A program made the translations under genes and the position numbers. A DNA stretch of 32,000 bases from Promethearchaeum syntrophicum (lineage in GTDB: Archaea; Asgardarchaeota; Lokiarchaeia; Sigyniarchaeales; Promethearchaeaceae), in contig NZ_CP042905.2 of the NCBI RefSeq assembly GCF_008000775.2, positions 720,001-752,000 of the forward strand, in the 5' to 3' direction. Of the stretch, positions 7,724 through 31,209 are shown piece after piece. Every line of letters starts with the position of its first letter. Positions within the stretch are counted from its first letter, which is position 1. The notes under the pieces were generated by a model. It searched no databases. It was not told where the DNA came from and saw only the letters and a program-made list of their open reading frames with translations.

Positions 7724-7769
7724 TTTTATTTTATTATAGGTTTATCTACCTACTAAGGTCAGATGATAA
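7682..7769. promoter_or_regulatory. Divergent intergenic region (putative bidirectional promoter) between the LbH/MaoC pair and the DUF354-PPTase-hydrolase operon
   Basis: 88-nt AT-rich spacer with TATA-like strings (TATTTAAAAAAA, GGTATAAAAAAAG, TTTATTTTATTATA) between two divergently transcribed gene sets. Assigned by position only. Confidence 0.3.
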
Positions 7770-8882: not shown

Positions 8883-8903
8883 AATAAAAAACCGATAGTA
8901 TTT

Positions 8904-11930: not shown

Positions 11931-13048
11931 TTATCTCCTCTTTTTTCGGCGAAAGTATCTCCACAACCTCGAGTTTCAGATTTTTCCACTCGGGAGCGAA
12001 ATTCAAAATATTTTCCTTTTCTTCCACAAGGACAATCATCAATTCCGATAATTTCACCGATATCTTCTGTTATAATAGCTTGACCGGGATAACTACTAGG
12101 GATTATATTAATAATTTCGATTAAACCAGGATCTCCGATTTGTTTTTCTTTCATAGAATAAATATCTCGAATAATAATATCCGCAAAATCCGGAACATGT
12201 TTGTGACCTGCTTCACAGTCTAGAAAAACAACACCCAATTGTTCCACCATACCATAAAAATCAATTATGTTTTCTGGTTTGGTTCCAAAGGTATCTGCAA
12301 CAGTCTCAGAAAAATATTGTTTTGTAACTGAATCTGCTTGTAATTTCTTCCATCCTCCGCTATGAACAAGTTTCATATTCGGAAAACTTAATTTTTTATT
12401 GACTTTTTTCATTTGATTAATAAAACGACTCCAAATTATATATGTAAAACCTGAAACAATTATCTCTTGATCTGCAAATTCTTCACAAAATGCGTTTAAC
12501 AATTTAAAATTTATAAATAATTCTCCGTCTTTTTCATCCATTACATAAACTTTTTTCCTACCAAAATTCCCTGCAATCCCTCTGATAGCAGCACCCCGAG
12601 CTGTCAAAGTTGTTGCACTTGCTTTATTTACATTTTCCGTATCTAAAATTAATGCTGGTCGACGACTTCCACCTAAGAAGTTTTTTAAAGTAGAGATTAA
12701 TGCTCGTGTTTGTCTAAACGATGTTTCTTTATTTATATAGATTTTACTCGGAATGCTATTTGTAGTTCCACTTGAGTGAAGAGTTCTTATTATTTTTTCA
12801 TCAGCACATGTTTTTAACTCAAAATTTTTAAACATTGATACCGGAATTGATGGAATCTCAGAAACGGATTCATAATCATCTGGATTTTTTCCCATAGTTA
12901 AATAAAATTTTTTTAAATTGGGTGAAAATTCCATATTATTTATGATCTGGGCTTTTAAGATAGGAAGTAGCAATTTATCTTTACTTGATTGAAGTAACTT
13001 GAATTGATCTTGAACAATTAGATCCTTTATTCTTGCTTTAATATCCAT
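11927..13048 (-). CDS. LuxE-like acyl-protein synthetase (adenylate-forming)
   Basis: 373-aa ORF. LHSSGTTNSIPSKIYI (SSGTTG..S motif), HSGGWKK and the C-terminal CPCGRKGKYFEFRSRVEKSETRGCGDT are typical of the LuxE / PaaK-like family. Confidence 0.8.
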   Translation of the reverse strand: MDIKARIKDLIVQDQFKLLQSSKDKLLLPILKAQIINNMEFSPNLKKFYLTMGKNPDDYESVSEIPSIPVSMFKNFELKTCADEKIIRTLHSSGTTNSIPSKIYINKETSFRQTRALISTLKNFLGGSRRPALILDTENVNKASATTLTARGAAIRGIAGNFGRKKVYVMDEKDGELFINFKLLNAFCEEFADQEIIVSGFTYIIWSRFINQMKKVNKKLSFPNMKLVHSGGWKKLQADSVTKQYFSETVADTFGTKPENIIDFYGMVEQLGVVFLDCEAGHKHVPDFADIIIRDIYSMKEKQIGDPGLIEIINIIPSSYPGQAIITEDIGEIIGIDDCPCGRKGKYFEFRSRVEKSETRGCGDTFAEKRGDK

Positions 13049-14109
13049 TCTATCAATCCTAGTAATTTTTCTTTTTTAAACCGAATTGGGGAGGTGGATA
13101 TCGAAGGATCTTGAAGTGCCGTTTCTGCCCATTTTTCTTTATTTAATGCTTTTAATACTGATGGATCACTATATTGCTGAAATCCAATACTATCGAATAA
13201 TTCAAGATATTGTTTGTAAATTGGTTTATCAGTTTCCTTATAATACCATAAAAGGATTGGCTTAATGAGTAGTAAAATGGATGCTGCATGGGATATTGAT
13301 ATTTGATGTTCCATAGTATGAGCTAAAGCATGACAAACACCTACATACGCATTTCCTTGAACTTTCCCTGCAAGATAACCAGCATATTGGATATCAGCAT
13401 AAGCTTTAGGATCATCATTTTTTTCTTTCAATTTATCAAAACCACTTTTCAGAAGGTTTAAACTGCTTTCTCCTATGCTTTTCAGCAAAGGGGTGTTCAT
13501 CATTGAAACAGATCCTTCAAATGCATGGGAAAAAATATCTGCACCGAATTCATATAATGATTTAATTGGCAAAGAACTTAAGAAATTCGGATCTAAGATA
13601 GCTAAATCTGGAATAAAACCATGATTTAGATATGGATGTTTATGACCTTCTTTATCATATATTACTGCCACTGCTGTAGATTCAGATCCGGTACCTGGAG
13701 TCGTTGGAATTGCAACTAATTTAACTGAATTTAAATCAAGGAACTGTTGATCATGAAAATCATCAAAATTTATTTCGGGATAAGATAAAAAAACGCGTAA
13801 TATTTTTGCTGGATCAATAACGGACCCTCCTCCAATAGCAACAATTACTTCTGGTTTATTTGAAAGATATTTATCTCGTAATTTCAAAATTTCATCTTGA
13901 TTTAAGAATTGTACAATTTCAGTTTGAACTGATTTTTCTTGTGTATATTTTTCAATTTTAGAATAATAATCTGAATTTTTAATAGGTTCTGCTATAAGTA
14001 CCAAAAATTTTGAATAATCAATACTTTTAAGGCAAGCAATTGCTCCTTTTTTATAGTAAACTTCTGGGGTGTTCCATAAACGTTTTACCATTAACTTCTT
14101 CTTTATCAT
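13027..14109 (-). CDS. Iron-containing (group III) alcohol dehydrogenase
   Basis: 360-aa ORF. VIVAIGGGSVIDPAKI (GGGS NAD motif), VAIPTTPGTGSE and the metal-His region GVCHALAHTMEH. Confidence 0.85.
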   Translation of the reverse strand: MIKKKLMVKRLWNTPEVYYKKGAIACLKSIDYSKFLVLIAEPIKNSDYYSKIEKYTQEKSVQTEIVQFLNQDEILKLRDKYLSNKPEVIVAIGGGSVIDPAKILRVFLSYPEINFDDFHDQQFLDLNSVKLVAIPTTPGTGSESTAVAVIYDKEGHKHPYLNHGFIPDLAILDPNFLSSLPIKSLYEFGADIFSHAFEGSVSMMNTPLLKSIGESSLNLLKSGFDKLKEKNDDPKAYADIQYAGYLAGKVQGNAYVGVCHALAHTMEHQISISHAASILLLIKPILLWYYKETDKPIYKQYLELFDSIGFQQYSDPSVLKALNKEKWAETALQDPSISTSPIRFKKEKLLGLIEWILKQE

Positions 14110-14110
14110 T

Positions 14111-15622
14111 TTAATTACCTTTTTTTTCTTTATGCATTTGTTTTAATTTAACTCTATCGAGTTTATTAGAATTATTCTTGGGTAATGAATTTAAAAATTC
14201 ATATTCTTTTGGAATTTTATGATTTGGAAAATGATTTTTACAATATGAAATAATCATCTTTTCTGTAAGTTTTGAATTTTCAACAAGTGAGATATATGCC
14301 TTCATTGCTTCTCCCAAAATATCATCAGATATTCCTATAATGCCGACTTCAACTACATCATCTAATTGTGTGATATAATCTTCCACTTCTTTAGGACTAA
14401 CTCGAAAGCCTCCAATCTTTAGAATATTTTTCTCGCGATCAGTTAAGAAGATGTATCCTTCTTCATCAACTGTTCCAATATCGCCAGTATAGAGTTTTCC
14501 ATTTTTAAAGGTTTTTACAGTTGTTTCTGGATCTTTCCAATATCCTAATGTAATATTATCTCCCGAAGCTACCAATTCCCCAGTTTCTCCATATTTGATT
14601 GGTTTTCCTTCTTTATTAAGTACTTCTAGAATAGTATTAGGGATTCCCTTTCCGATTGAACCCAACTTTGTATCTAAAAGATTGGGGGGAAGATATGATA
14701 GACGAGCCGTCGCTTCAGTCTGACCATACATGATGAAAATTTGAGTATTTGGTAAGATTTCTCGTAATTCCGATATGAAAGTATTAGCTAATTTTCCTCC
14801 AGCTTGCTGAATTAATCGTAAAGTGGGAAAAGTCATCTTCTTAAAAGGGGATCTTCTAAGTAAAATTTGATATGTGCTTGGCACACCTGCAAATACTGTG
14901 CATTTTTTTTCATTAATTTCTTTTAATACTTTCCCAGGAAACATGAATCTATTATTTAAAACAATCTGACCTCCAACTCTTAAATGAGTGTGAAGTAAAG
15001 ACGTTCCAAAACAATATGAAAAGGGAAGAACAACCATAACGCGATCATTTTGATTTAATTGAAGGTATTCTATAATCGAATTAGAGTTATGAATTATATT
15101 TAAATGAGATTGCATAACACCTTTCGGTATCCCTGTAGAACCTGAAGTAAAAATAATTACAGCTAATTTTGCTTTTTCATTTATAGGTTTAATTATTCCC
15201 TTTTCATTTTTTAGATCAAAAACGGTAATAGCATCTTCTAAATTATCATCTGTAAAAAGAATTTTTGTTGAAATTCCATATTTTTCAAATTTTTTTACAT
15301 ATTTCTTTTGTATGAAAAAACAAGAAACATTGCATGAATCTATAACATATTTAAAATTTTGCTCACCGAACTGATTATGCAAAGGAACTGCAACTCTTCC
15401 GCTTGCAATTATACCAAAATAAGCAGCAATAAAAAAAAGAGAATTATCTGAAACAATCATAATTTTCTCATCAAGACTTAATTGAAAATCATCTAATTTC
15501 TTACTAATTTTTAAAATAAGAGAATATAATTCAGAAAACGAATATTTTTCATCTCCTTGAAAAATTGCATATTTATTATTTAAATTCTTTGAATTTTCAA
15601 AGATATATTGTGTCAGATTCAT
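14111..15622 (-). CDS. AMP-dependent synthetase/ligase (acyl-ACP/CoA ligase)
   Basis: 503-aa ORF with adenylation core motifs IIFTSGSTGIPKGV, YGQTEA, YTGDIG, DREKNILKIGGFRVSPKEVE and a C-terminal NSNKLDR. Confidence 0.95.
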   Translation of the reverse strand: MNLTQYIFENSKNLNNKYAIFQGDEKYSFSELYSLILKISKKLDDFQLSLDEKIMIVSDNSLFFIAAYFGIIASGRVAVPLHNQFGEQNFKYVIDSCNVSCFFIQKKYVKKFEKYGISTKILFTDDNLEDAITVFDLKNEKGIIKPINEKAKLAVIIFTSGSTGIPKGVMQSHLNIIHNSNSIIEYLQLNQNDRVMVVLPFSYCFGTSLLHTHLRVGGQIVLNNRFMFPGKVLKEINEKKCTVFAGVPSTYQILLRRSPFKKMTFPTLRLIQQAGGKLANTFISELREILPNTQIFIMYGQTEATARLSYLPPNLLDTKLGSIGKGIPNTILEVLNKEGKPIKYGETGELVASGDNITLGYWKDPETTVKTFKNGKLYTGDIGTVDEEGYIFLTDREKNILKIGGFRVSPKEVEDYITQLDDVVEVGIIGISDDILGEAMKAYISLVENSKLTEKMIISYCKNHFPNHKIPKEYEFLNSLPKNNSNKLDRVKLKQMHKEKKGN

Positions 15623-15625
15623 TCT

Positions 15626-15865
15626 TCAAACTTCAATACCATGATTTTTTAAGGTTTCTTTAATTGCACCAATTGAATCCATTTCTGTTATTTCTTCAAC
15701 ATCCAATTCTAAACCAAATTTTTCTTCAAATCTTGCCATTAAATCCATGTGTGAGATTGATGTCCAACTTTCTATGTCATCAGGTGTTGCATCATCGGTT
15801 ATTTCTTCACTTTTAATGTTAAATACTTCTAATAACATATTAATTAGCTGTTCAGATTGATTCAT
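15626..15865 (-). CDS. Acyl carrier protein (polysaccharide-locus 'W-[DT]-S' type)
   Basis: 79-aa acidic ORF. IESWTSISHMDLMARFEEKFGLEL aligns with the ACP helix-2 region DSLDTVELVMALEEEF, placing the phosphopantetheine Ser at the TS position. It sits 3 nt upstream of the ligase gene. Confidence 0.8.
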   Translation of the reverse strand: MNQSEQLINMLLEVFNIKSEEITDDATPDDIESWTSISHMDLMARFEEKFGLELDVEEITEMDSIGAIKETLKNHGIEV

Positions 15866-15883
15866 ACTTTATAATACCATTCT

Positions 15884-17212
15884 TTAATTTTTAATTTTCT
15901 CTTTTATTTTTCTAATAGATCTATTAAAATATATAATAGTTATTCCGTACCAAATAATTAAAACTATAATACCTAGTATCCCACTATAAAGCCAGTTCAA
16001 TGGTTGCTTTACAATGAAAATATCAAGAATATAAACTAAAATTAGTCCAATAATCATTAATACTGTCATAATAATCGTAATTCCAAAGATCCTTGGATAT
16101 TTTTTAATAATGATGTAATATAAAACACCACCTATTGCGAAAACCGAAAAACTTAAGGCGTAATTTGGAACTTCTATTGGTAATATCCATTGAATTGCGA
16201 TTATTGCATAAATTCCAGAGATACCAGATAAAGCCATAATATTATTAACCAAATCCTTTTCCTTCAGTTTTCCATTAGCTAAAATTAAACGCGGTAATGT
16301 TAACGATGAACCATGTTCAAGCGAAGCATGGATAAAATCTTCATCATCTATGAAAATATCTTTTATTTTAACTGAATGACTTTCTTTAAATCCATGTTCT
16401 GATGCTATAACATAAAAGCTATTGAAAATATGGGGTAGCATAACTAATATCATTGCAACTTCTAAAGATCCCAATATACCAAGCATTGCAATTGCTGCAC
16501 CAATCGTTAAGGTTCCAACATCTCCTGGAAAAACTTTAGCGGGGAATCTATTAAAGAAATAAAACGCTAACCCTGCACCTAAAATAATCGCCCCAAATAA
16601 AACCCCTTCACTCGATTTTATCATAATTGCAGCAATAATCATAAAAAATGTCGCTATACTGGTAGTACCTGATCCTTCACCGTTGTAACCTTCAAGCATA
16701 TTAACTGTATTGGTAAGAATTAAAACAATGAACGGTAAGACAAAAGGATAGATAAGATTGAGTCTAAGTTGCCCTAAAATAGGTAATACTGGGCTGTTTA
16801 CACTGATCCACCCAATAATTGGAAGGTTAAAGATAAAAACGGGTAAACCTGAGATAATTAATAAAATTATTTTCTTTTTAGGAGAAAATTGTTTTCGATC
16901 GTCAATAAATCCAATCACTCCCGCAAAAATTATTGTTATTATGAACACTATCACCTCCATCCATAATTCGGAATAGAAAATTCCAATTATAATAGATCCT
17001 ATAATTAATGCAATTGCAATTCCAATCCCGCCCGACTCAGGTGTCGCCGTTCGAGATTTTTTATGGATATCATATCCGATCCATCCCTTTTTTTTAATCC
17101 ATTTTATCAAGGGAGGATATAAAAAATACGCAAATAAGAAGACAATTAAGCCTATGGAAAATATGATTATTCCATCAATCCAAGTTAAATTAAGGTCAGA
17201 GAATGTAAACAA
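15884..17212 (-). CDS. GT4-family polyprenyl/dolichyl-phosphate HexNAc-1-phosphate transferase (MraY/WecA/AglH-like), polytopic membrane protein
   Basis: 442-aa hydrophobic ORF with about 10 or more TM segments. Motifs are GFIDDRKQFSPKKK, NTVNMLEGYNGEGSG (N..DG.NGL) and VFPGDVGTLTIGAAIA. It has a TTG start and is the first gene of the ACP operon. Confidence 0.85.
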   Translation of the reverse strand: MFTFSDLNLTWIDGIIIFSIGLIVFLFAYFLYPPLIKWIKKKGWIGYDIHKKSRTATPESGGIGIAIALIIGSIIIGIFYSELWMEVIVFIITIIFAGVIGFIDDRKQFSPKKKIILLIISGLPVFIFNLPIIGWISVNSPVLPILGQLRLNLIYPFVLPFIVLILTNTVNMLEGYNGEGSGTTSIATFFMIIAAIMIKSSEGVLFGAIILGAGLAFYFFNRFPAKVFPGDVGTLTIGAAIAMLGILGSLEVAMILVMLPHIFNSFYVIASEHGFKESHSVKIKDIFIDDEDFIHASLEHGSSLTLPRLILANGKLKEKDLVNNIMALSGISGIYAIIAIQWILPIEVPNYALSFSVFAIGGVLYYIIIKKYPRIFGITIIMTVLMIIGLILVYILDIFIVKQPLNWLYSGILGIIVLIIWYGITIIYFNRSIRKIKEKIKN

Positions 17213-20160: not shown

Positions 20161-21114
20161 ATGACGAAAAAATACGTTTACAAAATTCTTGTGGCAGGAC
20201 AAGGTGGTGTTGGTAAAACTACACTACTTACAAGAATTGTTACTGGAAAATTCGTTCAAAATACTGCTATGACTATTGGCGTGGAGTTTCATCTTTTAAA
20301 TTTAGCCCTAGGAAACGAAAATGAAAAAGTTAACACCGTTATCCAATTATGGGATTTCGGAGGGCAAGAAAGATTTCGTTTTATGTTAGATTCATATGTT
20401 GCTGGTGCACGAGGTGCACTATTGTTATACGATATGACAAGACTTCGAACTTTGGATGGTTTGGATGAATGGGTTAACATTGTGAGAACTCATGATAAAA
20501 ATCTTCCAATTCTTTTTGTAGGAACTAAATTAGATCGCGTTGAAGATATTACTGTAAGTGATGATTACGCAAAAGAATTCTTAGAACCACTCAATATGTT
20601 TGATCATATGAAAATTTCAAGCAAGGATGGAACAGGCGTTGAACAAGCATTCAAGAAAATAACTAGGAAAGTGCTAGAAATTAACGGTGTTTATGTTCCT
20701 CCAGAAGCAGAGGTTGAACCTCAAGATCTTGAAAAAATGCTCGGAAATGAACCATCAACAATTCCAACTCCCGTTAGCGAACCATCAACAATTCCAACTC
20801 CCGTTAGTGAACCACCAACAATTCCAACTCCCGTTAGCGAACCATCAACAATTCCAACTCCCGTTAGTGAACCACCAACAATTCCAACTCCCGTTAGCGA
20901 ACCACCAACATTTCCAACTCCCGTTAGCGAACCACTAACAATCCCGACTCCAGTTAGTGAACCACCAACAATTCCTGCTCCAATAAGCGAACCTCCAATT
21001 ATTCCAGCACCTGATAGTGAAACTACTCCTGTTGAGGAAACTGAAGAAAAAAAGAAGCCCAAAAAGGATCCTGAAGAAGATCTTTATTCCTATTTTACTA
21101 AATCCTCAAGTTAG
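20161..21114 (+). CDS. Rab/Ras-like small GTPase with a C-terminal Pro/Thr/Ser-rich decapeptide-repeat tail
   Basis: 317-aa ORF. G1 is VAGQGGVGKTT, the switch-I Thr is in MTIGVEF, G3 is LWDFGGQERF, G4 is VGTKLD and G5 is ISSKDG. Residues ~195-290 are 9 copies of EP[SP]TIPTPVS, followed by an E/K-rich tail. There is no CAAX or TM segment. Confidence 0.9.
   Translation: MTKKYVYKILVAGQGGVGKTTLLTRIVTGKFVQNTAMTIGVEFHLLNLALGNENEKVNTVIQLWDFGGQERFRFMLDSYVAGARGALLLYDMTRLRTLDGLDEWVNIVRTHDKNLPILFVGTKLDRVEDITVSDDYAKEFLEPLNMFDHMKISSKDGTGVEQAFKKITRKVLEINGVYVPPEAEVEPQDLEKMLGNEPSTIPTPVSEPSTIPTPVSEPPTIPTPVSEPSTIPTPVSEPPTIPTPVSEPPTFPTPVSEPLTIPTPVSEPPTIPAPISEPPIIPAPDSETTPVEETEEKKKPKKDPEEDLYSYFTKSSS
20749..21020 (+). 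repeat. 30-nt in-frame tandem repeat (about 9 copies) encoding EP(S/P)TIPTPVS
   Basis: The unit GAACCATCAACAATTCCAACTCCCGTTAGC has a 30-nt period. Positions 20761-20820 and 20821-20880 are an exact 60-nt duplication, and the copies diverge toward the 3' end. Confidence 0.95.
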
Positions 21115-21126: not shown

Positions 21127-21564
21127 GTGTCTTTACCAGCTAAATCTCAAATTTTAATTTTTTTAGATGCAAATTTTATTTTAACACCTTCAACTTTAAA
21201 TGTCGATATTTATAAAGAATTGAAAATAAATTTTCCTAATACATACAAATTGGTTGTTCTTTCTGCTATTTTTACTGAATTAGAAGAAAAAATAAAGAAA
21301 TATCCACGGAAAACTAAATTGAAACAAGAGTATCAATTATGCCGTGCGATTTTGGAACGACAAACATATACCCTAATTCAATGTGAACGACAACATCCTG
21401 GTAAGTTAGTTGATGATTTGTTGTTAGAATTTGCTTTAAATTCCTCTAAAAAAGGTAATAATGTTTATATTGCAACTAATGATAAAGAATTACGTAAAAA
21501 ATGTAGAGATAAAAAAATTAAAGTAATTTTTGTGCGGCAAAACAAATTTTTAGAGATTGAATAA
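21127..21564 (+). CDS. PIN-domain nuclease, Fcf1/Utp24-like
   Basis: 145-aa ORF with a GTG start 12 nt after the GTPase stop. The four acidic PIN positions are in order: FLDANF, FTELEE, VDDLLL and IATNDKELRKKCRDKKIKVIFVR (VATND.eLr...r..gi.vi..r is the Fcf1-type ending). Confidence 0.7.
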   Translation: MSLPAKSQILIFLDANFILTPSTLNVDIYKELKINFPNTYKLVVLSAIFTELEEKIKKYPRKTKLKQEYQLCRAILERQTYTLIQCERQHPGKLVDDLLLEFALNSSKKGNNVYIATNDKELRKKCRDKKIKVIFVRQNKFLEIE

Positions 21565-21720: not shown

Positions 21721-23892
21721 TTATTTCTGGGCTGGGTGTTTAAATTTTATTAATAAAACAACAGCAACTCCAACAATCGAGAGAAATGGGGCGCCGATGT
21801 AAAGCCCTATAAGCCATGGACTTTCGGGATCTGTTTCATCCAATGGATTGGTTCCATCCCTAACTTCATCCCCGTCACTATAACCATCCCCGTCCGTGTC
21901 GGGATTAAGGGGATCTGTAACGTAGTTGTCAACTTCGTAACCATCAATAAGCCCATCCTCATCCGTATCTCTATTGAACGGATCCGTATGAAATTCAATT
22001 TCTCTTCCGTCGTTTAGTCTGTCATCATCGCAATCAGAGTCATTTGGATCGGTTTCGTAAACATATATTTCTTCGTAGTCGCTCAATCCATCTTCATCAG
22101 TGTCGCGTTCTGTGGGATCGGTATGAAATGTGAAAATTTCTTCATAATCACTTAATATGTCGTAGTCGCTATCTATTTTATTGGGATTCGTGAAATAGAC
22201 GAAAATTTCATCCCGATCATTTACACCATCATCATCGCTATCTGCTTTATTGGGATTTGTTCCGTGCGTGTATTCTTCCAAATTAGTCAAATTGTCGTTA
22301 TCGGGATCTCCATCGGTATTATTGGTGTAGAGGGGATCGAATAAATAAATGAGTTCCCAGCCATCAGGCAAGAGGTCGCCATCGCAGTCCCAATTATTCG
22401 GATCACACCCGTGTATCAATTCCTGCCCATCAATAAGAAGATCATCATCGGAGTCGTTATTGTTCGGATCGGTATCATAAAAATATATTTCATCATAATC
22501 ATTTAACCCGTCTTCGTCAGTGTCGTTATTATTGGGATTCGTAAAATATACGAAAATTTCATCTCCGTCAATTAATGCATCATTATCGGTGTCGTTGTTG
22601 GTTGGATTGCATCCGTATAATATTTCATCATAATCATTTAACCCATCTTCGTCCGTGTCACTGCTCGTAGGATCAGAATGATGAATGTTAATTTCATCCC
22701 AATCCCCTAAGAAATCCCAATCTGTGTCCCAATAATTCGGATTTGTACCGTGCGTTTGTTCTTCTAAATTGGTCAAATTGTCGTTATCGGGATCTTCAAT
22801 TGCGTCCTCGGGTTGTAGTGGGTTTAGATCGTTATCAATTTCCCAAAGGTCGAACATTAAATCACCATCCGTGTCGTTAGTGTTCGGGTTTGTGTGATAA
22901 TTATTTATTTCGACACGATCATTAATTCCATCCCCGTCCGTGTCGGGATTAAGTGGGTCAGTATTGTAATCAAACACTTCTGCGCCGTCCGTCAGCCAAT
23001 CACCATCGCTATCTAGATCATTTGGATCTGTGTTGTAGATATTGATTTCATCTCCGTCAATTAATGCATCATTATCGGTGTCGTTATTATTGGGATTCGT
23101 AAAATATACGAAAATTTCATCTCCGTCAATTAATGCATCATTATCGGTGTCGTTATTATCGGGGTTTGTTCCGTTCGTGTATTCATCATAGTTAATTAGA
23201 TTATCGTTGTCAGGATCTTCGTATCTATCGAATTGCAAGGGATCGAGATTATATTGAACTTCCCAACCATCTCGCATCCAATCATCATCACTGTCCCAGT
23301 CTCTTGGATATGTAGAATATAAGAATATTTCATCCCAATCATACAACCAATCGGAATCCGTGTCGTTATTATGAGGATTGGTATTGTATATTAAAACTTC
23401 TTCTTCATCGTTTAACCCATCATCATCACTATCTGGATCATTGGGATCTGTGTTGTGGATATTATTTTCATCCCAATCATTTAACCCATCATCATCACTA
23501 TCTGGATCATTGGGATCTGTGTTATGTGTTACTTCATCACCATCAATTAAACCATCACCATCCGTGTCGTTATTGCAGGGATTTGTGAAATAGGTCTTGA
23601 TTTCATCTCCGTCTAATAACCCATCCTCATCGGTGTCGTTATTATGTGGATTGGTATCGTACGTATATTCCTCCAGATTTATTAAATTATCATTCTCAAT
23701 ATCATCGTTGGCATTCGCTTGTAGGGGGTCAAGATTGTATTGAACCTCCCAACCATCAGGCATGAGGTCATCATCACTATCCCAATCATTTGGATCTGTA
23801 TTGTGAATATTGATTTCATCGTAATCTGAAAGCCTATCATCATCACCATCACCATCATAAATAATTTGCAGACCTTCAGAACCCGAAGCCAA
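21721..23892 (-). CDS. Asp-rich thrombospondin-type-3-like Ca-binding repeat surface protein with a C-terminal TM anchor; apparently 5'-truncated
   Basis: 723-aa ORF made of dozens of D.D.DG..D.DE / N.D[TS]D.D units (NDTDGDGLIDGDE, DPDSDDDGLND) interspersed with PDGWE.QYNLDPL modules. The C-terminal hydrophobic helix GAPFLSIVGVAVVLLI is followed by KFKHPAQK. It has a TTG start and no signal peptide, and the frame stays open 28 codons upstream to 23976. Confidence 0.75.
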   Translation of the reverse strand: MASGSEGLQIIYDGDGDDDRLSDYDEINIHNTDPNDWDSDDDLMPDGWEVQYNLDPLQANANDDIENDNLINLEEYTYDTNPHNNDTDEDGLLDGDEIKTYFTNPCNNDTDGDGLIDGDEVTHNTDPNDPDSDDDGLNDWDENNIHNTDPNDPDSDDDGLNDEEEVLIYNTNPHNNDTDSDWLYDWDEIFLYSTYPRDWDSDDDWMRDGWEVQYNLDPLQFDRYEDPDNDNLINYDEYTNGTNPDNNDTDNDALIDGDEIFVYFTNPNNNDTDNDALIDGDEINIYNTDPNDLDSDGDWLTDGAEVFDYNTDPLNPDTDGDGINDRVEINNYHTNPNTNDTDGDLMFDLWEIDNDLNPLQPEDAIEDPDNDNLTNLEEQTHGTNPNYWDTDWDFLGDWDEINIHHSDPTSSDTDEDGLNDYDEILYGCNPTNNDTDNDALIDGDEIFVYFTNPNNNDTDEDGLNDYDEIYFYDTDPNNNDSDDDLLIDGQELIHGCDPNNWDCDGDLLPDGWELIYLFDPLYTNNTDGDPDNDNLTNLEEYTHGTNPNKADSDDDGVNDRDEIFVYFTNPNKIDSDYDILSDYEEIFTFHTDPTERDTDEDGLSDYEEIYVYETDPNDSDCDDDRLNDGREIEFHTDPFNRDTDEDGLIDGYEVDNYVTDPLNPDTDGDGYSDGDEVRDGTNPLDETDPESPWLIGLYIGAPFLSIVGVAVVLLIKFKHPAQK

Positions 23893-24009
23893 AAAGATAT
23901 AATTTCCACTGAGAAAAATTCCCCGAGGGTTCCCTCCATTATAAATCTGATCTTTATTAAAGTAAAAAAACCGCTTTTATATCCCAAAAAATGAAAGAAT
24001 CTCGTTATT

Positions 24010-24363
24010 TTATTCTATAATTTCAAAAAGGACTTTCGAACCTGATGAATTTACTATTTTGATTTTATCTTGTTTAATTAAATATCCAAAACACGCAAAA
24101 GTCTCACGATATGGTAATCCAAATATTTCTTCAATTTCACTTCGATCATCAAAATTTATATAATTCTCATCAAAAACTTGTAATTCATTAAGAATATCAC
24201 TTATTTTTTTTAAAATTTGGTTAGCACCATCTTCAGAAATTATAATTGGACTTAATATTAAACTGTCTTTATTTTTCCGAAAATTAAATTTTATTTCATT
24301 AGATTTTAAAAATATATTTTCATTCTTTAACAATTTTTGATAAGAAGAGTTAATACTTTCCAA
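24010..24363 (-). CDS. Hypothetical small protein (117 aa from TTG; frame open for 41 more codons upstream)
   Basis: Last gene of the three-gene cassette, with no recognisable motif. The reading frame is open from 24486, overlapping the end of the upstream gene. Confidence 0.5.
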   Translation of the reverse strand: MESINSSYQKLLKNENIFLKSNEIKFNFRKNKDSLILSPIIISEDGANQILKKISDILNELQVFDENYINFDDRSEIEEIFGLPYRETFACFGYLIKQDKIKIVNSSGSKVLFEIIE

Positions 24364-24443
24364 AATTTGTTTGGAATTTCTAAGAGTATGGTTAATAACT
24401 ATTGCAATTTCTTCAATATTATCCTCTGGTCGATTATGTGCAT

Positions 24444-25901
24444 CTAAATGGCCATTCGATAAGATATATTCTTTCCAAATAATATCCTAAATGATTGATT
24501 TTGATGAATTTCAGGATGTCGATGAGCTATTGCATTTCGGTTATCTACATTAAGGTCGGAATATAATTCTTTAAATTTTCCGTCATTTAAAGTATCACAA
24601 AATTCAAAGATTTTGCTCTCTGGGATATGATGATGGGGAGATGATGGATTGAAAATTTCATATAAGGGTTGTAGCAATTTTTTATAGGTAAGATAATAAT
24701 TGGCCAAATAGATTGTGCGAAAAGCTGCGTTCATGATAAAATCTGGTTTTGGTTTTGATATTCCATTATAAGTTTGAAACATGATACAACTGTCAGTTAT
24801 TAAAGAATACAGATGTAATTTATCGCTCTCTCTTATTTGATTCCAATTATTATGGATTTTTTGAAAATCTATTGTAATTCCTTTTATTTTACTAAGATCT
24901 TGATAAATAGGGTGTTTCATCAGATTAGTTTTGGAATAGATATCTTGCATTTGGCTAAATTGATTCGTAAATTCAGATTTCATATTTCGAGTAAAATCAT
25001 CTTTATCATATTCTTGAAGATATAATAGGATAAGGCAATTCACCAATATGTTTATATTTCTACAAAGATCAATACATTCTTTTATAGATAATGTTTTAGG
25101 ATGCTCTTGATTTTCAATTTTTCTAAGGAATACAAATTCTTCCTTAATATAATCATAATAATACCATTGATGTGCCAATAACGTTCTAAAATAAGGTTTT
25201 ATAATCGTGTGTTGATATTTATTTATCAATTTCGTATCATCCTGAAAGAAAAAATGAATTTTCTTAGAATATGAATCAATTTTTTTTTTCAACAAATCAG
25301 GTATTAGAGGATCGATGAAATATTGAATTATTAATTCAAAATCATGTATATAGCTGTCAATTGCAATACTCCATTCAATCTTAATGAGATTATTATGCTT
25401 CTGGATTAAATTTAATGGATTATTCATCACACGTAGAAATGAATCACTTAGTGTTTTTTCCCAATAGGGGTATTTTTTTGAGATTTCTTTACGTTTTAGC
25501 ATAAATGGGCTTAATTTTTGTTGATTACTTAAAAATTGTTTAAATTTTGTTGCATAAAATGAACTTGATTCAAAATCAGGTAATTGGGACATAACATAAT
25601 TTGCAAATGGAAAATTAGGATTATTTAACACCATTTTTTTCATTTCTTTTTGCCTTTGGGGTATAATTTTATTTATTTGATAGTGCATATATATACGGGA
25701 AAAATTAGGAACAAATCCAAACTTTTGACTTTTTATTGGATCTGAAAAGATCTCAAATGAAAAACCTATTTGTGGATAAAATGTAAAGTAATTATGTTGG
25801 ACAATTTTATATAGGTTAGGGAGTGTATCTAGCAAAATTTTAGATAACATCTTAACTTGCTGGATCTCATTCGGAGTTAAGGGGATTTTCTTTTTTCCCA
25901 T
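24444..25901 (-). CDS. Hypothetical protein (485 aa) with a C-terminal HEPN-type R-x4-H motif (candidate RNase)
   Basis: ATG start. The C-terminus is ...FKELYSDLNVDNRNAIAHRHPEIHQNQSF.... The RNAIAH motif (24522-24539) is an RN...H motif ~25 residues from the end, the position of the last HEPN helix. The rest of the protein is not recognised. Confidence 0.6.
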   Translation of the reverse strand: MGKKKIPLTPNEIQQVKMLSKILLDTLPNLYKIVQHNYFTFYPQIGFSFEIFSDPIKSQKFGFVPNFSRIYMHYQINKIIPQRQKEMKKMVLNNPNFPFANYVMSQLPDFESSSFYATKFKQFLSNQQKLSPFMLKRKEISKKYPYWEKTLSDSFLRVMNNPLNLIQKHNNLIKIEWSIAIDSYIHDFELIIQYFIDPLIPDLLKKKIDSYSKKIHFFFQDDTKLINKYQHTIIKPYFRTLLAHQWYYYDYIKEEFVFLRKIENQEHPKTLSIKECIDLCRNINILVNCLILLYLQEYDKDDFTRNMKSEFTNQFSQMQDIYSKTNLMKHPIYQDLSKIKGITIDFQKIHNNWNQIRESDKLHLYSLITDSCIMFQTYNGISKPKPDFIMNAAFRTIYLANYYLTYKKLLQPLYEIFNPSSPHHHIPESKIFEFCDTLNDGKFKELYSDLNVDNRNAIAHRHPEIHQNQSFRILFGKNISYRMAI

Positions 25902-25984
25902 AATATTAATGATAAACTCTGCAATATATAATTTATGAAGGATAGAGAAATTACATCTTAATTATTTGGAGCTCTGGGATGTTT

Positions 25985-27850
25985 TCATGAAGAATTGTTT
26001 TCATTAAGTGTGTTTGAATCACCTTTATAGGTTATAGATCCATTTTCTTCCTGAATAATAGTCCATTCGGTGACATCATTAAGTGGAATATGGTGCCTCT
26101 TTTTAGGTGGAGGATTTTCTATTTCAAGCTTTTTTCTTTCAATAGCTCCCCTTTCAAGAGCTTCTTTGTTCTCTTTATCGATTCTGGCTATATTACAATC
26201 CCAACAAATTGAAGATTTCTCCTTATGATAATGAGATTTACAAAAAGAACATAATTTCTTATAATTGCTGAAATATCCAAAGCATCTCTTGCATAGAAAC
26301 AACGGATATGTTAAAATAGCGGACATTTTAAAATCTCTTCTTAGATAGAACTGTGGTTCTTTGATGATATTATGATGTGATCCACACCATTTGCACTCGG
26401 ATTGATTTGGATTTAATGGAAGACAATTCGAATTGAATAAATCACAATGGATGAATTTTGGTTTTGGAAATGGGCTTTGAAAATTTACCTTATCAATAAT
26501 CTGAAATAATCTATCATCTGGAATAATTATTATAGAGGAAGAAGTTTTTTTTTGGGTTATTGGTGAGAAGTAGTATTTCTTAAAATAAAATCCTCCATCT
26601 TCTTTCAATTCGAAAATGGGATGGTTTATTTTAAATTTTCCTTGCTTTAAGTGAAACTGGGAGATATTACAATTTAAATTTTTATTAAAATGGGTGCAAT
26701 CTCGACATGACAGTAATTGAAAATCGGTTCTTGTCTGTGTTCTAATCATTGATTTAATCATTTTTAATTGATTATCAACCAAACTTTCTATTAAGATATA
26801 ATTATTCAACTCTATTTTGTGTCTATGTTTATACACCCAAATATGGGCGTAAAGTTTAGGGTGATTGTAATGAAAAAAATGACCAAAATCACGATAGTGT
26901 ATAAGTTTAAGATAGTGAATACTCTCCCAAATCACTATTGGAGTTATATTTGCATGCATATATTCTTCAAGATCTGGTTTTTCAAAGTAGGTGTAAATAA
27001 TAATAAAAGCATATTTTTTGTTATTTTTGGACTTCCACAATAAATCGGGTATTGATTGGGTAAAGATAAGGGGGTATTCTTCAATATCAACCACAGAGAA
27101 CTTTTCTGATTGCTGAGTAGATAATAGAAGATTATTAAGAAATTGAAAAATGGGTGTTTTTTTTAATGGGAATAAGATCTGTTCTTGGGCTGTTTTTTTG
27201 GGATTGATAATATGTTCGTATAACTGCTCCTTAGAAGTCAATTCTAGATCTCTGCGACCTCTGGGGATCGAAATACTTTCCATAAGCTTTGGTTTAGGAT
27301 TCAATTTCAGATAATACACCTGATGAATGCATGGGGGGATCCACACAGCAAATTCATCTAATTTAGTTGAATTTTTGATAAAACTTTTACTAAATTCTCC
27401 GCTTCGATCTTCATAGTGAAATATCCATAACGGAATTAGATGATAATTTTTATAACACTGATTTCTTCTCTGAATCTCTTTATTAGGTATTCTAGAATGT
27501 TGTACTTCAATTGCATATTTTATCCCTGAATATTCCCAAAGTAAATCTGGTCGTACACCTTCAAATCCATATACCTCTATATTTTTTTCTGGAATTTGAA
27601 GTAATTCTTGTATATACTTCTTCATAGCCAGATGTTCTTGAGTTTCCCTTTCATATTTTTCCATACATTCAGGATTTTGGACTTTGTGTGCGAAATGAGG
27701 GATCTTTTTTTCACCTTTTCGTAATATCATTTCGCGATGTTTACAATCCGGATTTCGACATAAATATTTTTGAGTGAGTCCTAATTTGCTTGCATGGGGT
27801 AGGCTTTTAGAGGCTTCCACGATTTTCCCATTTAGTTCAGCAGTAAGCAA
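25985..27850 (-). CDS. CoiA-like PD-(D/E)xK nuclease-domain protein with a degenerate second core and a C-terminal Zn-ribbon array (621 aa)
   Basis: The N-terminal 145 aa align motif by motif with competence protein CoiA: LCRNPDC...LRKGEKKIPHFAHK....C, ETQEHLAMKKYI, VRPDLL and YAIEVQHSRI....RR..Y....IPLWIF. Residues 382-552 contain CRDC, CKWC, CKRC, CSFC and CWDC. The TTG start gives MLTAELNGKIV, like CoiA N-termini. Confidence 0.75.
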   Translation of the reverse strand: MLTAELNGKIVEASKSLPHASKLGLTQKYLCRNPDCKHREMILRKGEKKIPHFAHKVQNPECMEKYERETQEHLAMKKYIQELLQIPEKNIEVYGFEGVRPDLLWEYSGIKYAIEVQHSRIPNKEIQRRNQCYKNYHLIPLWIFHYEDRSGEFSKSFIKNSTKLDEFAVWIPPCIHQVYYLKLNPKPKLMESISIPRGRRDLELTSKEQLYEHIINPKKTAQEQILFPLKKTPIFQFLNNLLLSTQQSEKFSVVDIEEYPLIFTQSIPDLLWKSKNNKKYAFIIIYTYFEKPDLEEYMHANITPIVIWESIHYLKLIHYRDFGHFFHYNHPKLYAHIWVYKHRHKIELNNYILIESLVDNQLKMIKSMIRTQTRTDFQLLSCRDCTHFNKNLNCNISQFHLKQGKFKINHPIFELKEDGGFYFKKYYFSPITQKKTSSSIIIIPDDRLFQIIDKVNFQSPFPKPKFIHCDLFNSNCLPLNPNQSECKWCGSHHNIIKEPQFYLRRDFKMSAILTYPLFLCKRCFGYFSNYKKLCSFCKSHYHKEKSSICWDCNIARIDKENKEALERGAIERKKLEIENPPPKKRHHIPLNDVTEWTIIQEENGSITYKGDSNTLNENNSS

Positions 27851-27966
27851 TTTTTTTCCTTCCTTTATCTAATTCATTTTCTTCTTTTTCTTCGCCATAA
27901 ATCAATCATCTTCAATTAATTTAAAATTACTGTCAATTCTAATCCAAAATTATACCTTGTTAAAAC

Positions 27967-28245
27967 TTATATTTTCATCCTCCGCTGAATTCGATACAGA
28001 TCCGTTTCCAGCTTCTCCAGAATTTTTTGCTGTTCGATCAATGCAAACAAAAAAAGGGATTCCGAAATAAACATTCGAGCAGATAGTGATCCAGCATCGC
28101 TGTGCATTCGTGCATAAAGCATAATATTATCAAAATATTGCCGATATGCTGGTTTTAATCCTTCTCGATACAGTTTCCAACTCCCAATCTCTTTTTCCAG
28201 CGCGTATCGGTAGGAGGGTATTGTTCTTCCTATAGTTTCTTTCTT
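27967..28245 (-). pseudogene. Start-less gene remnant (92 codons open; only 51 from the first ATG), visibly GC-richer than its surroundings
   Basis: Hand translation gives KKETIGRTIPSYRYALEKEIGSWKLYREGLKPAYRQYFDNIMLYARMHSDAGSLSARMFISESLFLFALIEQQKILEKLETDLYRIQRRMKI*. The sequence is protein-like and non-low-complexity. There is no ATG/GTG/TTG before codon 42 (ATG 28122). Confidence 0.4.
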
Positions 28246-28448
28246 TCAAGATTTGTTTTTGAATCATGAATGGTAGTGAATTTATTTGAAGCTTCAAATA
28301 GTGACTTCTCCCACAAAAAAATATACTTTGTCTTTACACGAAAATTTGAATATGTAAACTATAAAAGTGTGGAAATTCATAATGATTATTGACTTACTTT
28401 ATCAAAACGTGAAAAAAATATGACAAAAAAAAATGGAGGCATGAATCA

Positions 28449-29534
28449 GTGAAACTCATAAAAAAAATATTATTATTTTTATCGATAGTAGGTTCAGTTA
28501 TATTGATTGCTGGAGCAAGTGGTCTTCTTAACCGTAATTTCAACATTATCGGGCAGCTCAGTGATGATTTATTTGGGAATGATGTCTACATTTCGGAGTC
28601 ATATGCTTACGTGGCAGACTATGGTAATGGATTGGCAATAATTGATATTTCCGTTCCCACAACTCCCTTAAAAGTAGCACAAATAGATGATGATATTGGA
28701 TACGCATATGGAATTTATGTCTTGGGTTCCTATGCTTATGTAGCAGATGGTGATGATGGCTTAGAGATTATTGACATTTCAGACCCATTCAATCCAATAG
28801 AAGTGGGACATTTCTATGATGGTAGTGGATTCGCATGGGATGTTTACGTGAGGGGTGATTATGCATATATAGCAGAGTGGATTGATGGATTGGAGATAAT
28901 TGACATTTCAGATCCAGTCAATCCAGTAGAAGTGGGGCAAATCGATGATTACAGTGAAGGTGCATTCGGAGTTTATGTTTCAGGATCGTATGCTTTTCTA
29001 GCAGAGAACGATTATGGTTTAGAGATAATTGACATTTCAGATCCAGTCAATCCAGTTGAAGTGGGGCATTTCTATGATGGTAGTGGATATGCATACGACG
29101 TTTTTGTTTCAGGTTCATATGCTTATGTAGCAGATGCGACTAATGGTTTAGAGATAATTGACATTTCAGATCCAGTCAATCCAGTTGAAGTGGGGCACTT
29201 CTATGATGGTAGTGGAACAGCACGAGGAGTTTTTGTTTCAGGTTCATATGCTTATTTGGCGGATGATGAAGATGGGTTGGAGATTATTGACGTTTCCATT
29301 CCAACTGCTCCCGTAGAAGTGAAACAATTCCAAGATGATAACTTTGCAAAGGATGTTTTTGTTTCAGGTTCATATGCTTACGTGGCGAATGGTCGCTATG
29401 GATTGGAAATCATCGAGCCTTGGAGTTTAAAAGAAAAAAATTCAAATATTATACTTTGGAGTGTTATTGGCTTTTTATCCATTCTGGTTCTGGTAAATAT
29501 TCGATATATTATCAAAGAAATCATTTCACACTGA
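28449..29534 (+). CDS. LVIVD-repeat seven-bladed beta-propeller surface protein with an N-terminal signal/anchor and a C-terminal TM helix
   Basis: 361-aa ORF. The GTG start is 9 nt after GGAGG. The N-terminus is MKLIKKILLFLSIVGSVILIAGASG. There are seven copies of the ~43-aa unit ..G.A.(D/G)V(Y/F)VSGSYAYVAD...GLEIIDISDP.NP.EVG. The C-terminal helix is ILWSVIGFLSILVLV. Confidence 0.9.
   Translation: MKLIKKILLFLSIVGSVILIAGASGLLNRNFNIIGQLSDDLFGNDVYISESYAYVADYGNGLAIIDISVPTTPLKVAQIDDDIGYAYGIYVLGSYAYVADGDDGLEIIDISDPFNPIEVGHFYDGSGFAWDVYVRGDYAYIAEWIDGLEIIDISDPVNPVEVGQIDDYSEGAFGVYVSGSYAFLAENDYGLEIIDISDPVNPVEVGHFYDGSGYAYDVFVSGSYAYVADATNGLEIIDISDPVNPVEVGHFYDGSGTARGVFVSGSYAYLADDEDGLEIIDVSIPTAPVEVKQFQDDNFAKDVFVSGSYAYVANGRYGLEIIEPWSLKEKNSNIILWSVIGFLSILVLVNIRYIIKEIISH
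28887..29216 (+). repeat. Near-identical 129-nt in-frame repeats inside the LVIVD gene
   Basis: GG(A/T)TT(G/A)GAGATAATTGACATTTCAGATCCAGTCAATCCAGT.GAAGTGGGGCA recurs at 28887, 29016 and 29145. The last two copies match over ~72 nt with 1 mismatch. Confidence 0.85.
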
Positions 29535-29684
29535 GCTGATACAAATATAACTCTTTCTAATCCTTTTTTCATAATTATGATTTTAAATATCTAGATTGTT
29601 ACTCTCTTGTAGATTCTAATGAATATTCAAAAATTTAGATCCGAAATGAAAACATGGTATTAATTCTAGAGGTCGGCAGCCATC

Positions 29685-30329
29685 ATGCAAGTAAACAATA
29701 AAATCTATTATCATATCCAACGAAAAGATCCGAATCAGCCGTATTGGAACATTGGTGAGGTGTTAACGGGTCCTGCTGGACCTAAGAATTATTTTATTGA
29801 GAGTGTGTTAAATCAAGAATATTCCCGATATGCCGGAGAAGGCTTATATTGGGATTCTGATATACTCAGTCATTATGCTGCGGTCCAAATGGGGTTTGAA
29901 ACTAAATTCTCAAAAATGGATAATTCATATTTTAATCCTGAAGGCATACTTCGAATGAGTTATACGATGATCAATCATTATCTTCGAGTTTTACGAGAAT
30001 TAATCTTTGAAACCGTTCGAGAGAAAAGTTTTCCTCATCTCATCTCAAGATGGGGATGTATTTGGCTAATTCCGTCGAAAAAAGGTATCGGATTCTGGAT
30101 TAAAAAACTTGGAATTGCAGATTTAAGTCAATGTAGGATATATAAAGTAAAATGCACGGGAGAAATACATCGAGGACATGAGAAGCATTTACAGGTAGAA
30201 TCCATGTCAGTTCCGAATTTTGAAGAAAATGCGATAAAATATTGGACTGGCGGGGGAAAAGACTCATCATATAATGATGAGGTAATTTTCTGGGGAAACG
30301 TAGAATTCATTGAAATTATCGATTATTAG
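29685..30329 (+). CDS. Hypothetical protein (214 aa), no confidently recognised domain
   Basis: ATG start and a complex, Trp/Tyr-rich sequence (…LRELIFETVREKSFPHLISRWGCIWLIPS…). Only a short antisense shadow ORF overlaps it. Confidence 0.6.
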   Translation: MQVNNKIYYHIQRKDPNQPYWNIGEVLTGPAGPKNYFIESVLNQEYSRYAGEGLYWDSDILSHYAAVQMGFETKFSKMDNSYFNPEGILRMSYTMINHYLRVLRELIFETVREKSFPHLISRWGCIWLIPSKKGIGFWIKKLGIADLSQCRIYKVKCTGEIHRGHEKHLQVESMSVPNFEENAIKYWTGGGKDSSYNDEVIFWGNVEFIEIIDY

Positions 30330-30516
30330 AATTCATTCATCAGTTGGAATATTCTTATAGGAAACATTTGTTTTGTTAATTTCCACAAAATGCTAAATAA
30401 AAATGGAAAAAAGAATTGCTTAGATTGATTTTTTTTAGAAATTAGATTGTTGAATTATTATTAAATAAATAAGGAATTATCTTAAATTTATATATGGAGA
30501 ATGTCTAGAAATTCTT

Positions 30517-31209
30517 GTGGTATTTGATCAAACGAAAGATTTCTTTCAAAGATATTATCTTCAATATTGGATAACCAAAGCAGAAAGCTTATATTATCAA
30601 TTGAACAATATAAAAAAATTTTCAACTTTCTTCGATGAAAATGAATATTTCAAAGAAGCTGAATCACCCGAAAAACCATTACAAAATATGATTACTTTCG
30701 ATTTACATTTCCTAAAATTTCAAATAATAGAGGCACTCTTTAGCTTGATTTTTGCTTTAGAAACCTCAAATGAAGAAGAAATATGGTTTAATTTATCTAT
30801 TCCTAATGAGATTTCAAAAAGAAATTTCAAACTGTATGATCGAATTGCTTCTTTTAAATCTAAAGGAGAATTATTCACATATTTAAGAAAAGAAAATTGT
30901 ATTCAGGATCAACAAATAGAATTTTGGAAGGTGTTATTCTTTCAAAATGAAAATGAAATTCAAGAAGAAAAAAAGGTATTCGAGAATATTTTACGAATTT
31001 TATGGTCTTTTAGGAACCAATTTAAAGACAGAGGTGATTACAACGCATTCAAACATGGTTTAAGGTGTATGGGATCTTCTATATACTTATCTTGGGCAAA
31101 GGAAGAACAATATGGAATTCCACCTCCAAACTTTAAAGAAAAGTTACAACCTTTGGGATATGCTGAAAACGTGATAACATTTTTTAAAAGGAACTCACAG
31201 ATTATATAA
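30517..31209 (+). CDS. Hypothetical helical protein (230 aa), no recognised domain
   Basis: GTG start and helical-looking composition. The ORF ends 22-30 nt after a T6A4 homopolymer pair, where the +1 frame opens and continues to the window end. Confidence 0.55.
   Translation: MVFDQTKDFFQRYYLQYWITKAESLYYQLNNIKKFSTFFDENEYFKEAESPEKPLQNMITFDLHFLKFQIIEALFSLIFALETSNEEEIWFNLSIPNEISKRNFKLYDRIASFKSKGELFTYLRKENCIQDQQIEFWKVLFFQNENEIQEEKKVFENILRILWSFRNQFKDRGDYNAFKHGLRCMGSSIYLSWAKEEQYGIPPPNFKEKLQPLGYAENVITFFKRNSQII

Follow-up and report, generated by a model that had tools for sequence, protein, structure and literature searches.

A CoiA-family nuclease and a two-Rx4H-motif protein as probably independent modules at a recombination-scrambled locus of Promethearchaeum syntrophicum MK-D1

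Do three adjacent genes of the Asgard archaeon Promethearchaeum syntrophicum MK-D1 constitute a single defense system, or were they brought side by side by accident? The genes, referred to here as open reading frames (ORFs) 1 to 3, lie in a stretch of 32,000 nucleotides (contig NZ_CP042905.2, positions 720,001 to 752,000; hereafter the window, numbered from its first nucleotide). A preliminary description of the window had read them as a cassette acquired as one island, in which a CoiA-like sensor or cutter of DNA is coupled to an RNase effector of the HEPN type and to a small protein acting as antitoxin or modulator. The layout was as described: the ORFs encode 621, 485, and 117 amino acids, respectively, are all co-directional on the minus strand, and are separated by spacers of 83 bp (ORF1-ORF2) and 80 bp (ORF2-ORF3). 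The same three genes, including the 485-amino acid ORF2, were also present in an independent Logan assembly of DRR199588. With regard to their relation, we consider it probable, with considerable room for doubt, that ORF1, ORF2, and ORF3 are independent modules in a recombination-scrambled, defense island-like hotspot and not one system.

25985-27850, minus strand: ORF1, CoiA-family nuclease of 621 amino acids, TTG start
24444-25901, minus strand: ORF2 (DSAG12_01239), 485 amino acids, 3'-truncated member of a family of ~650 amino acids
24010-24363, minus strand: ORF3 (DSAG12_01238), ORFan, GC content 0.218

The distribution of the genes in other genomes carries much of this reading. Loci of the ORF2 family were examined in at least five distinct contexts (L001/L044, L007, L002, L009, L008, L042, and L043), and none of them contained a CoiA-like gene. 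Conversely, no relative of ORF2 or ORF3 was found in the loci of ORF1 homologues (L003 to L006). A sister metagenome-assembled genome (MAG), GCA_030613185.1, contains relatives of both ORF1 and ORF2, on different contigs (188 and 72, respectively). An all-against-all blastp comparison of the loci revealed no consistent shared neighbor, the only recurrent ones being an HNH-repeat-like protein (L001 and L009) and leucine-rich repeat (LRR) proteins (L004 and L005). The preliminary description had itself named co-occurrence of the three genes as a test of its proposal; the trio was absent from every other ORF1 or ORF2 locus examined, and by this test the proposal of a cassette is refuted.

The second line of evidence comes from the junctions between the genes, for which the following features are relevant.

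25902-25994, minus strand: 5' region of ORF2, conserved, with a TATA-like element; also holds the stop codon of ORF1 and the two codons before it
25995-29573, no strand assigned: MK-D1-specific segment of 3.58 kb between the ORF2 and DUF2441 blocks, containing ORF1, a gene remnant, and an LVIVD gene
29574-30356, plus strand: DUF2441 block (gene at 29685-30329), 86-90% identity in L007 and L044

Similarity to related loci is organized in blocks of single genes. The ORF1 block (window 26013-27868) comprises the gene only, with 74-76% identity to L003 and L004, and the ORF2 block (window 24443-25994) shows 92-94% identity to L001/L044 and L007. The latter includes ~90 bp of conserved sequence upstream of ORF2, with an A/T-rich TATA-like element located about 25-35 nucleotides before the ATG, so that ORF2 would bring its own probable promoter. 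Within the same block, TTCTTCATGAAAA provides the end of ORF1 in MK-D1, namely its final two codons and its stop codon. Given that the 3' end of ORF1 lies inside the ORF2 block, and that no CoiA gene is present upstream of this block in L001/L044 or L007, the boundary between ORF1 and ORF2 is a recombination joint rather than an ancestral operon junction.

At the junction between the ORF2 and DUF2441 blocks, L007 has about 0 bp, L044 has 942 bp that include two small ORFs, and MK-D1 has 3579 bp. On the downstream side of the ORF2 homologue, a second copy of DUF2441 follows after 114 bp in L007 and after ~9.9 kb in L044, where three genes of unassigned function, GajA, GajB, and a UDG-like gene lie in between. 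DUF2441 paralogues bracket a variable cargo region in these related Promethearchaeum genomes and, together with the variable junctions, therefore identify the locus as a hotspot of variable cargo. When compared with relatives that lack the insert, the region proved to be variable among close relatives and bounded by truncated genes. It resembles the integration hotspots of defense islands in its sharp block boundaries, in the variable cargo of the same junctions, which is Gabija, the CoiA-like gene, two small ORFs, or absent, and in the DUF2441 paralogues that flank it in three related genomes. Unlike such hotspots, the MK-D1 segment showed neither an integrase nor att sites or terminal repeats in its surroundings; apart from short chance matches, the repeat search returned only the repeats within the coding sequences of the TSP3 and LVIVD genes. 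The exchange at this segment looks like homologous or illegitimate recombination that left truncated genes behind.

As judged from its sequence, ORF1 is an intact, Asgard-specific endonuclease of the CoiA family with a new architecture, the parts of which are as follows.

27677-27775, minus strand: CoiA N-terminal zinc finger, residues 26-58, PF25164 with invariant C31, C36, H52, and H55
27407-27646, minus strand: predicted active PD-ExQ core, residues 69-148, PF06054, with D102, E115, and Q117
26921-27058, minus strand: degenerate second nuclease core, residues ~265-310, detected with hhalign
26195-26707, minus strand: cysteine-rich region, residues 382-552, with five conserved CxxC pairs

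The protein is 100% identical to an NCBI entry named "competence protein CoiA," and its TTG start is backed by conservation of M1, L2, and A4 at the N-terminus. Pfam detected both CoiA_N (PF25164; residues 26-58, E = 1.1e-7, 31.7 bits, cut-off of 26.3) and CoiA_nuc (PF06054; residues 69-148, E = 2.1e-13, 51.2 bits, cut-off of 20.3), with ORF1 covering just positions 1-83 of the 158 in the latter profile. Ten residues (C31, C36, H52, H55, C62, H73, K77, D102, E115, and Q117) are shared without exception by 12 sequences, ORF1 and 11 homologues; the catalytic residues, far from being lost in most homologues, are among them. A profile of residues 98-146 aligned with residues ~265-310 at a probability of 87% (E = 4e-6, 45 columns), and this second core retains the PD motif and has I-I-I in place of ExQ. 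All five ORF1-like proteins retain, within the cysteine-rich region, the five CxxC pairs together with C469 and H542, and the four of full length also retain C394, a pattern that predicts about three zinc sites. Pfam found nothing else in the middle region or C-terminus beyond a weak, sub-threshold match to TackOD1 in the C-terminal region (E = 0.023). The CoiA-type PD-(D/E)xK nuclease, the second and inactivated copy of its core, and the array of zinc ribbons, all of which the preliminary description had proposed, were thus upheld.

A variant active site, PD-EXQ, has been described for CoiA (PMC1189080), and the bacterial protein resolves D-loops in a structure-specific manner (bioRxiv 10.1101/2024.02.06.579203) and is reported to be restricted to Bacillota (bioRxiv 10.1101/2024.02.06.579203; PMC3424549). 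ORF1 shares with CoiA of S. pneumoniae and B. subtilis the zinc finger and the PD-ExQ core, with both Pfam domains above their cut-offs, as well as the catalytic D/E/Q, the upstream H/K helix, and the conserved R. Unlike CoiA, it is archaeal and has 621 instead of about 380-430 amino acids, and the bacterial domains PF25166 and PF25169 are replaced by the dead duplicate core and the zinc-ribbon array. These two Pfam domains were found neither in ORF1 nor in proteins P0001-P0005, and are present in the bacterial matches P0008, P0010, and P0011. A further difference is that the homologues of ORF1 lie in variable, defense-like neighborhoods without a visible link to competence genes, none of which were seen in the window or in related loci.

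Full-length homologues of ORF1 were found only in three MAG contigs of Promethearchaeota (61-63% and 43% identity), and a shorter relative is present on one metagenome contig. Their neighbors are a helix-turn-helix protein, a DrmC-like PLD protein, and PDC-S14/DUF4357 (PDC-S14, E = 1.9e-83) in L003; DUF4365 and a 320-amino acid protein without assigned function in L004; LRR proteins in L005; and, beside the ORF1 relative in L006, small genes without assigned function. Short CoiA-like nucleases of 236-333 amino acids were also observed on 31 IMG/VR viral contigs. Their matches to ORF1 fall within residues ~2-270, mostly within ~30-150, and the proteins encoded at 7908-8618 of L011 (236 amino acids) and 1492-2493 of L018 (333 amino acids) have the CoiA zinc finger together with the PD-ExQ core. 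The presence of CoiA-like nucleases on viral contigs and the defense-type neighbors therefore indicate that the module formed by the zinc finger and the PD-ExQ core is not confined to competence.

ORF2 is a member of a rare family with 22 representatives among 1.84 billion proteins searched with HMMER, most of them 590-660 amino acids in length. Its contigs include several from Promethearchaeota, the loci examined are all of low GC content (27-35%), and a scan of viral contigs for the family found nothing. Two Rx4H motifs characterize the protein.

25170-25187, minus strand: first Rx4H motif, R239-T-L-L-A-H244, located by family alignment
24522-24539, minus strand: second Rx4H motif, R455-N-A-I-A-H460, with R and H invariant in 20 sequences

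Among the 20 family members aligned, R455 and H460 are invariant, N456 and A459 are conserved in at least 90%, and the first motif is mostly conserved with the consensus RSxLAHQxYY. In hhalign, the two motif-bearing domains align with each other over 107 columns (probability of 77%, E = 2e-5), and this alignment superposes the two motifs. An AlphaFold model obtained with the 20-sequence alignment (pLDDT of 79.3, pTM of 0.77; a model from a 3-sequence alignment was unusable, with a pLDDT of 42.7) is all-alpha and places both motifs on short helices; there is an extra N-terminal helical region. The first motif is followed by a beta-hairpin and then a long helix, and the second by short helices only, with longer family members suggesting a hairpin there as well in the alignment.

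A polar residue after the R of the motif has been described as a hallmark of HEPN proteins, Swt1 has a HEPN dyad, and Csx1 has a beta-hairpin directly after its Rx4-6H motif (PMC3710099). The arrangement of motif, dyad, and hairpin in ORF2 therefore fits the published hallmarks (PMC3710099), and a HEPN fold for the family is plausible. Like the HEPN-dyad RNases Swt1 and Cas13, ORF2 combines two Rx4H motifs in one polypeptide, with homologous alpha-helical domains and a polar residue after R, and like the single-gene HEPN abortive-infection (Abi) proteins Abi2/AbiD/AbiF, the family appears to stand alone and occurs in defense-island contexts. It differs from both groups in having no detected sequence or Foldseek similarity to them, in its additional N-terminal region, and, for the MK-D1 copy, in the lack of the C-terminal ~170 amino acids. 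Cas13-type effectors are further set apart by their CRISPR and guide-RNA context, which the ORF2 family does not have. Csx1 has in common with ORF2 the hairpin after the motif, predicted after the first motif of ORF2 and suggested after the second, whereas ORF2 has no CARF domain, CRISPR-Cas neighborhood, or sequence similarity to Csx1.

The truncation of ORF2 in MK-D1 can be placed precisely by comparison of codons with its relatives.

24444-24449, minus strand: 3' breakpoint of the ORF2 block

At this point MK-D1 reads GCC-ATT-TAG where the relatives read GCC-TTA-GAG; the extra AT creates a stop codon, similarity ceases there, and the relatives continue for ~170 residues. An assembly error was rejected as the cause, given that the independent Logan assembly holds the same 485-amino acid gene. 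RNAIAH consequently lies 25 residues before the stop codon in MK-D1, and about 190 residues from the C-terminal end in the family. The spacing of ~25 residues from the C-terminus, which the preliminary description had compared with the position of a HEPN catalytic helix, is thus true of MK-D1 but is an artefact of truncation.

ORF3 sits where the lost C-terminal domain of ORF2 would be. Its frame extends upstream, still open, to about 24486, and removal of the two extra bases would join ORF2 and ORF3 into a single frame of 629 amino acids. That ORF3 is a diverged form of the family's C-terminal domain was considered and rejected (hmmsearch, 4 bits; hhalign probability, 0.1%). Given that the frame is unlike this domain, the C-terminal domain in MK-D1 has been replaced by unrelated sequence. 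ORF3 matched only itself among 5.8 billion proteins and had no tblastn match in any related locus, and Pfam assigned no family to either ORF2 or ORF3. Without a homologue, ORF3 is therefore not a conserved modulator or antitoxin, and the role envisaged for it in the preliminary description fell away.

Members of the ORF2 family elsewhere have neighbors related to defense. The family lies near Gabija in L001/L044 (GajA, E = 9e-52; GajB, E = 1.5e-69), type I hsdRSM in L002, and, at other loci, PDC-S15/FRG and PDC-S54 (E = 2.6e-82). A location in defense islands, expected for the cassette as a whole, was accordingly found for the ORF1 and ORF2 families each separately. A conserved partnership of DUF2441 with the ORF2 family was rejected, as the gene is absent from L002, L008, L009, L042, and L043.

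Several individual neighbors were also observed. Between the ORF2 homologue and the Gabija pair (L044 12407-16663, corresponding to L001 3516-7772) lie genes for proteins of 424, 501, and 432 amino acids, none with a Pfam or PADLOC match; a repeat of the 432-amino acid protein recurs (29% identity, E = 8e-16) in a protein of 168 amino acids that L009 encodes upstream of its ORF2-family gene. In L008, a protein of 388 amino acids (1829-2995) is encoded directly upstream of the ORF2-family gene (3233-5173); it has N-terminal CxxC motifs, an HxK PLD-like motif, and a weak match to RE_NgoFVII (E = 0.012), and is the sole other nuclease that precedes a member of the family. In L002, the type I HsdR of 1352 amino acids (3979-8037), encoded beside P0014, contains R-N-K-A-A-H in a C-terminal extension, which is possibly a fused HEPN-like module.

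The CoiA-like and ORF2 families are thus best read as independent, stand-alone candidate defense genes. ORF1, with its CoiA zinc finger and intact PD-ExQ site, would be a stand-alone DNA endonuclease that probably cuts branched or foreign DNA unaided, and its dead core and zinc-ribbon array may serve in substrate recognition or oligomerization. In the ORF2 family, the two domains would most likely come together within one molecule as a composite, HEPN-like RNase site of the abortive-infection type, probably controlled by the C-terminal helical domain, and the MK-D1 protein, which lacks this domain, is probably inactive or deregulated. ORF3 would be an orphan coding sequence at the breakpoint, derived either from some other gene, as a fragment of it, or from a chimeric ORF2 whose tail was cut off by the 2-bp shift. 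The three genes would then stand side by side by accident of insertion and truncation.

A bolder version of this picture can be put forward tentatively, its chance of being right falling appreciably short of even. According to it, the ORF2 family would be an undescribed tandem-HEPN RNase with a Cas13-like composite site that operates without CRISPR, a single-gene abortive-infection effector under a C-terminal helical sensor, resident in a hotspot bracketed by DUF2441, and the Asgard CoiA-like protein would be a new stand-alone archaeal defense nuclease derived from the fold of the bacterial D-loop resolvase.

A number of observations weigh against the independence of the modules or against the functions proposed for them. 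The loci available for each family are few, so that the absence of co-occurrence is a statement about small numbers, and the short same-strand spacers of 83 and 80 bp are compatible with co-transcription by read-through. The defense role of both families is drawn from neighborhood alone; scans with PADLOC and NCBIfam gave no match for ORF1 to ORF3 or for two of their neighbors. The dN/dS ratio of ORF2 against full-length relatives is 0.32-0.34, compared with 0.39 between two full-length copies, which gives no indication of decay, and the truncated protein may therefore still function. Finally, Pfam recorded no HEPN match for the 20 members of the ORF2 family or for 17 isolated second domains, profile searches against PDB gave no match for either the whole family or its second domain by itself, and Foldseek comparison of ORF2 with PDB and BFVD gave nothing better than E = 0.15. 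Of the HEPN motif noted in the preliminary description, the conserved R-N-x3-H consequently stands, and the HEPN fold is unconfirmed by Pfam, PDB profiles, or Foldseek.

These last results are the basis of the most serious rival explanation, that the ORF2 family is not a HEPN RNase at all but a novel alpha-helical fold whose R/H pairs serve in ligand binding or another kind of catalysis. The missing profile matches for family and second domain and the failure of Foldseek to return any HEPN structure speak for it. The polar residue that follows R in R-N-x3-H, however, and the placement of a motif on a short helix that is followed by a loop or hairpin and by a long helix (PMC3710099) favor HEPN, as do the domain dyad and the defense-island contexts, which fit HEPN hallmarks (PMC3710099), and sequence searches are known to miss HEPN families. 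We therefore judge a non-HEPN fold to be rather unlikely, though a genuine contender.

For ORF1, the corresponding question is whether it might be an archaeal recombination or repair nuclease that works in the manner of CoiA and has no part in genetic conflict. Its zinc finger and PD-ExQ core, and the demonstration that CoiA is a structure-specific D-loop resolvase (bioRxiv 10.1101/2024.02.06.579203), speak for this explanation. Its full-length homologues are very few, however, with a context that differs from genome to genome, and the protein is only 61% identical to its counterpart P0003 in the sister MAG, compared with 87% for ORF2 and the copy in the same MAG. The lack of PF25166 and PF25169, the candidate defense genes beside the ORF1 relatives, and the short nucleases on the viral contigs also point away from a repair function, which we consider improbable.

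The possibility that the rearrangement created a new two-gene unit specific to MK-D1, in which the CoiA-like nuclease and the truncated Rx4H protein cooperate, for example with the nuclease regulating or regulated by a sensor-less RNase, gains something from the distance of 83 bp between the genes, from the purifying selection still acting on ORF2, and from the PLD-like nuclease with its N-terminal CxxC upstream of the ORF2-family gene in L008. The combination is a single occurrence, however, the L008 nuclease is unrelated to CoiA, and no nuclease gene precedes ORF2-family genes at the other loci with an examinable upstream flank, so that this unit appears very improbable. The original three-gene cassette, even with its co-directional ORFs and short spacers, a nuclease domain in ORF1 and an Rx4H motif in ORF2, truncated flanking genes, and a regional GC content at or below the 0.30 of window positions 1-21000 (ORF1, 0.314; ORF2, 0.271; ORF3, 0.218), is hardly credible in view of a trio that recurs nowhere, single-gene similarity blocks and the recombination joint where ORF1 reaches its stop codon, an ORF2 that keeps its conserved upstream region in genomes without ORF1, an ORFan as its third member, and a second member truncated relative to its family. 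Independent modules assembled by recombination hence remain our preferred reading.

The gene content changes along the window. Positions 1 to 21.5 kb contain genes for metabolic enzymes and enzymes of glycan or lipid modification, and the content switches from 21.7 kb on to a TSP3 protein, ORF3, ORF2, ORF1, a GC-richer start-less frame, an LVIVD protein, DUF2441, and an ORF of 230 amino acids. Rfam and tRNA scans of the whole window found nothing.

21721-23976, minus strand: TSP3-repeat surface protein, 5'-truncated
27967-28248, minus strand: start-less frame of 92 codons, GC content of 0.387 compared with 0.23-0.26 on both sides
28449-29534, plus strand: LVIVD-repeat surface protein with N- and C-terminal hydrophobic segments

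Pfam identified the genes on either side of the trio as encoding TSP3-repeat and LVIVD-repeat proteins, in agreement with their earlier description as surface-protein genes. One of them had been noted as decapitated at the junction, and the TSP3 frame indeed begins, at 23976, partway through an LVIVD repeat and has no start codon or signal peptide. This LVIVD fragment is 52% identical to repeats of the neighboring LVIVD gene (E = 3e-8), and the beginning of the frame inside such a repeat therefore suggests an ancestral LVIVD-TSP3 fusion. The GC-richer gene remnant reported at the other end was likewise recovered as the start-less frame; it matched no Pfam family and is probably what is left of a gene carried in with the 3.58-kb insert.

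DUF2441 belongs to the ADP-ribosyltransferase clan of Pfam (PMC7955679). Its paralogues in L007 (2666-3319 and 5762-6412) and L044 (8154-8807 and 21944-22052) have ~80-85% amino acid identity to the window copy, with dN/dS ratios of 0.22-0.28; they may be recombination anchors or toxin-like genes themselves. Downstream of DUF2441 in the window, the 230-amino acid ORF (30517-31209, plus strand) contains an R-x7-H stretch (RGDYNAFKHG) and had no Pfam, PADLOC, or NCBIfam match. Before the switch in content, a Ras/Roc-type small GTPase with a C-terminal PTPVSEP repeat array (20161-21114, plus strand) is followed directly by a PIN_9 domain protein (21127-21564, plus strand). Farther upstream, at 3463-17212, a bacterial-type set of acyl-activation genes (phosphopantetheinyl transferase, LuxC acyl-CoA reductase, LuxE acyl-protein synthetase, AMP-binding enzyme, Fe-ADH, and MaoC dehydratase) is interspersed with sugar-modification genes (DegT aminotransferase, hexapeptide transferase, DUF354, and GT4). 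These genes may specify a pathway for an acylated surface glycan, which would be unusual for an archaeon.

With the fall of the three-gene system, the locus is therefore not to be catalogued as a new defense system. It instead illustrates how an island is remodeled, in gene-sized blocks with precise junctions and truncated leftovers. The ORF2 family emerges as a rare family with two conserved Rx4H motifs that recurs beside Gabija, type I restriction-modification, and PADLOC candidate genes. The nuclease fold of CoiA has so far been described solely as a competence factor of Bacillota, and its occurrence in a new architecture in a cultured Asgard archaeon, together with the short versions on viral contigs, widens the likely roles of the family beyond transformation.

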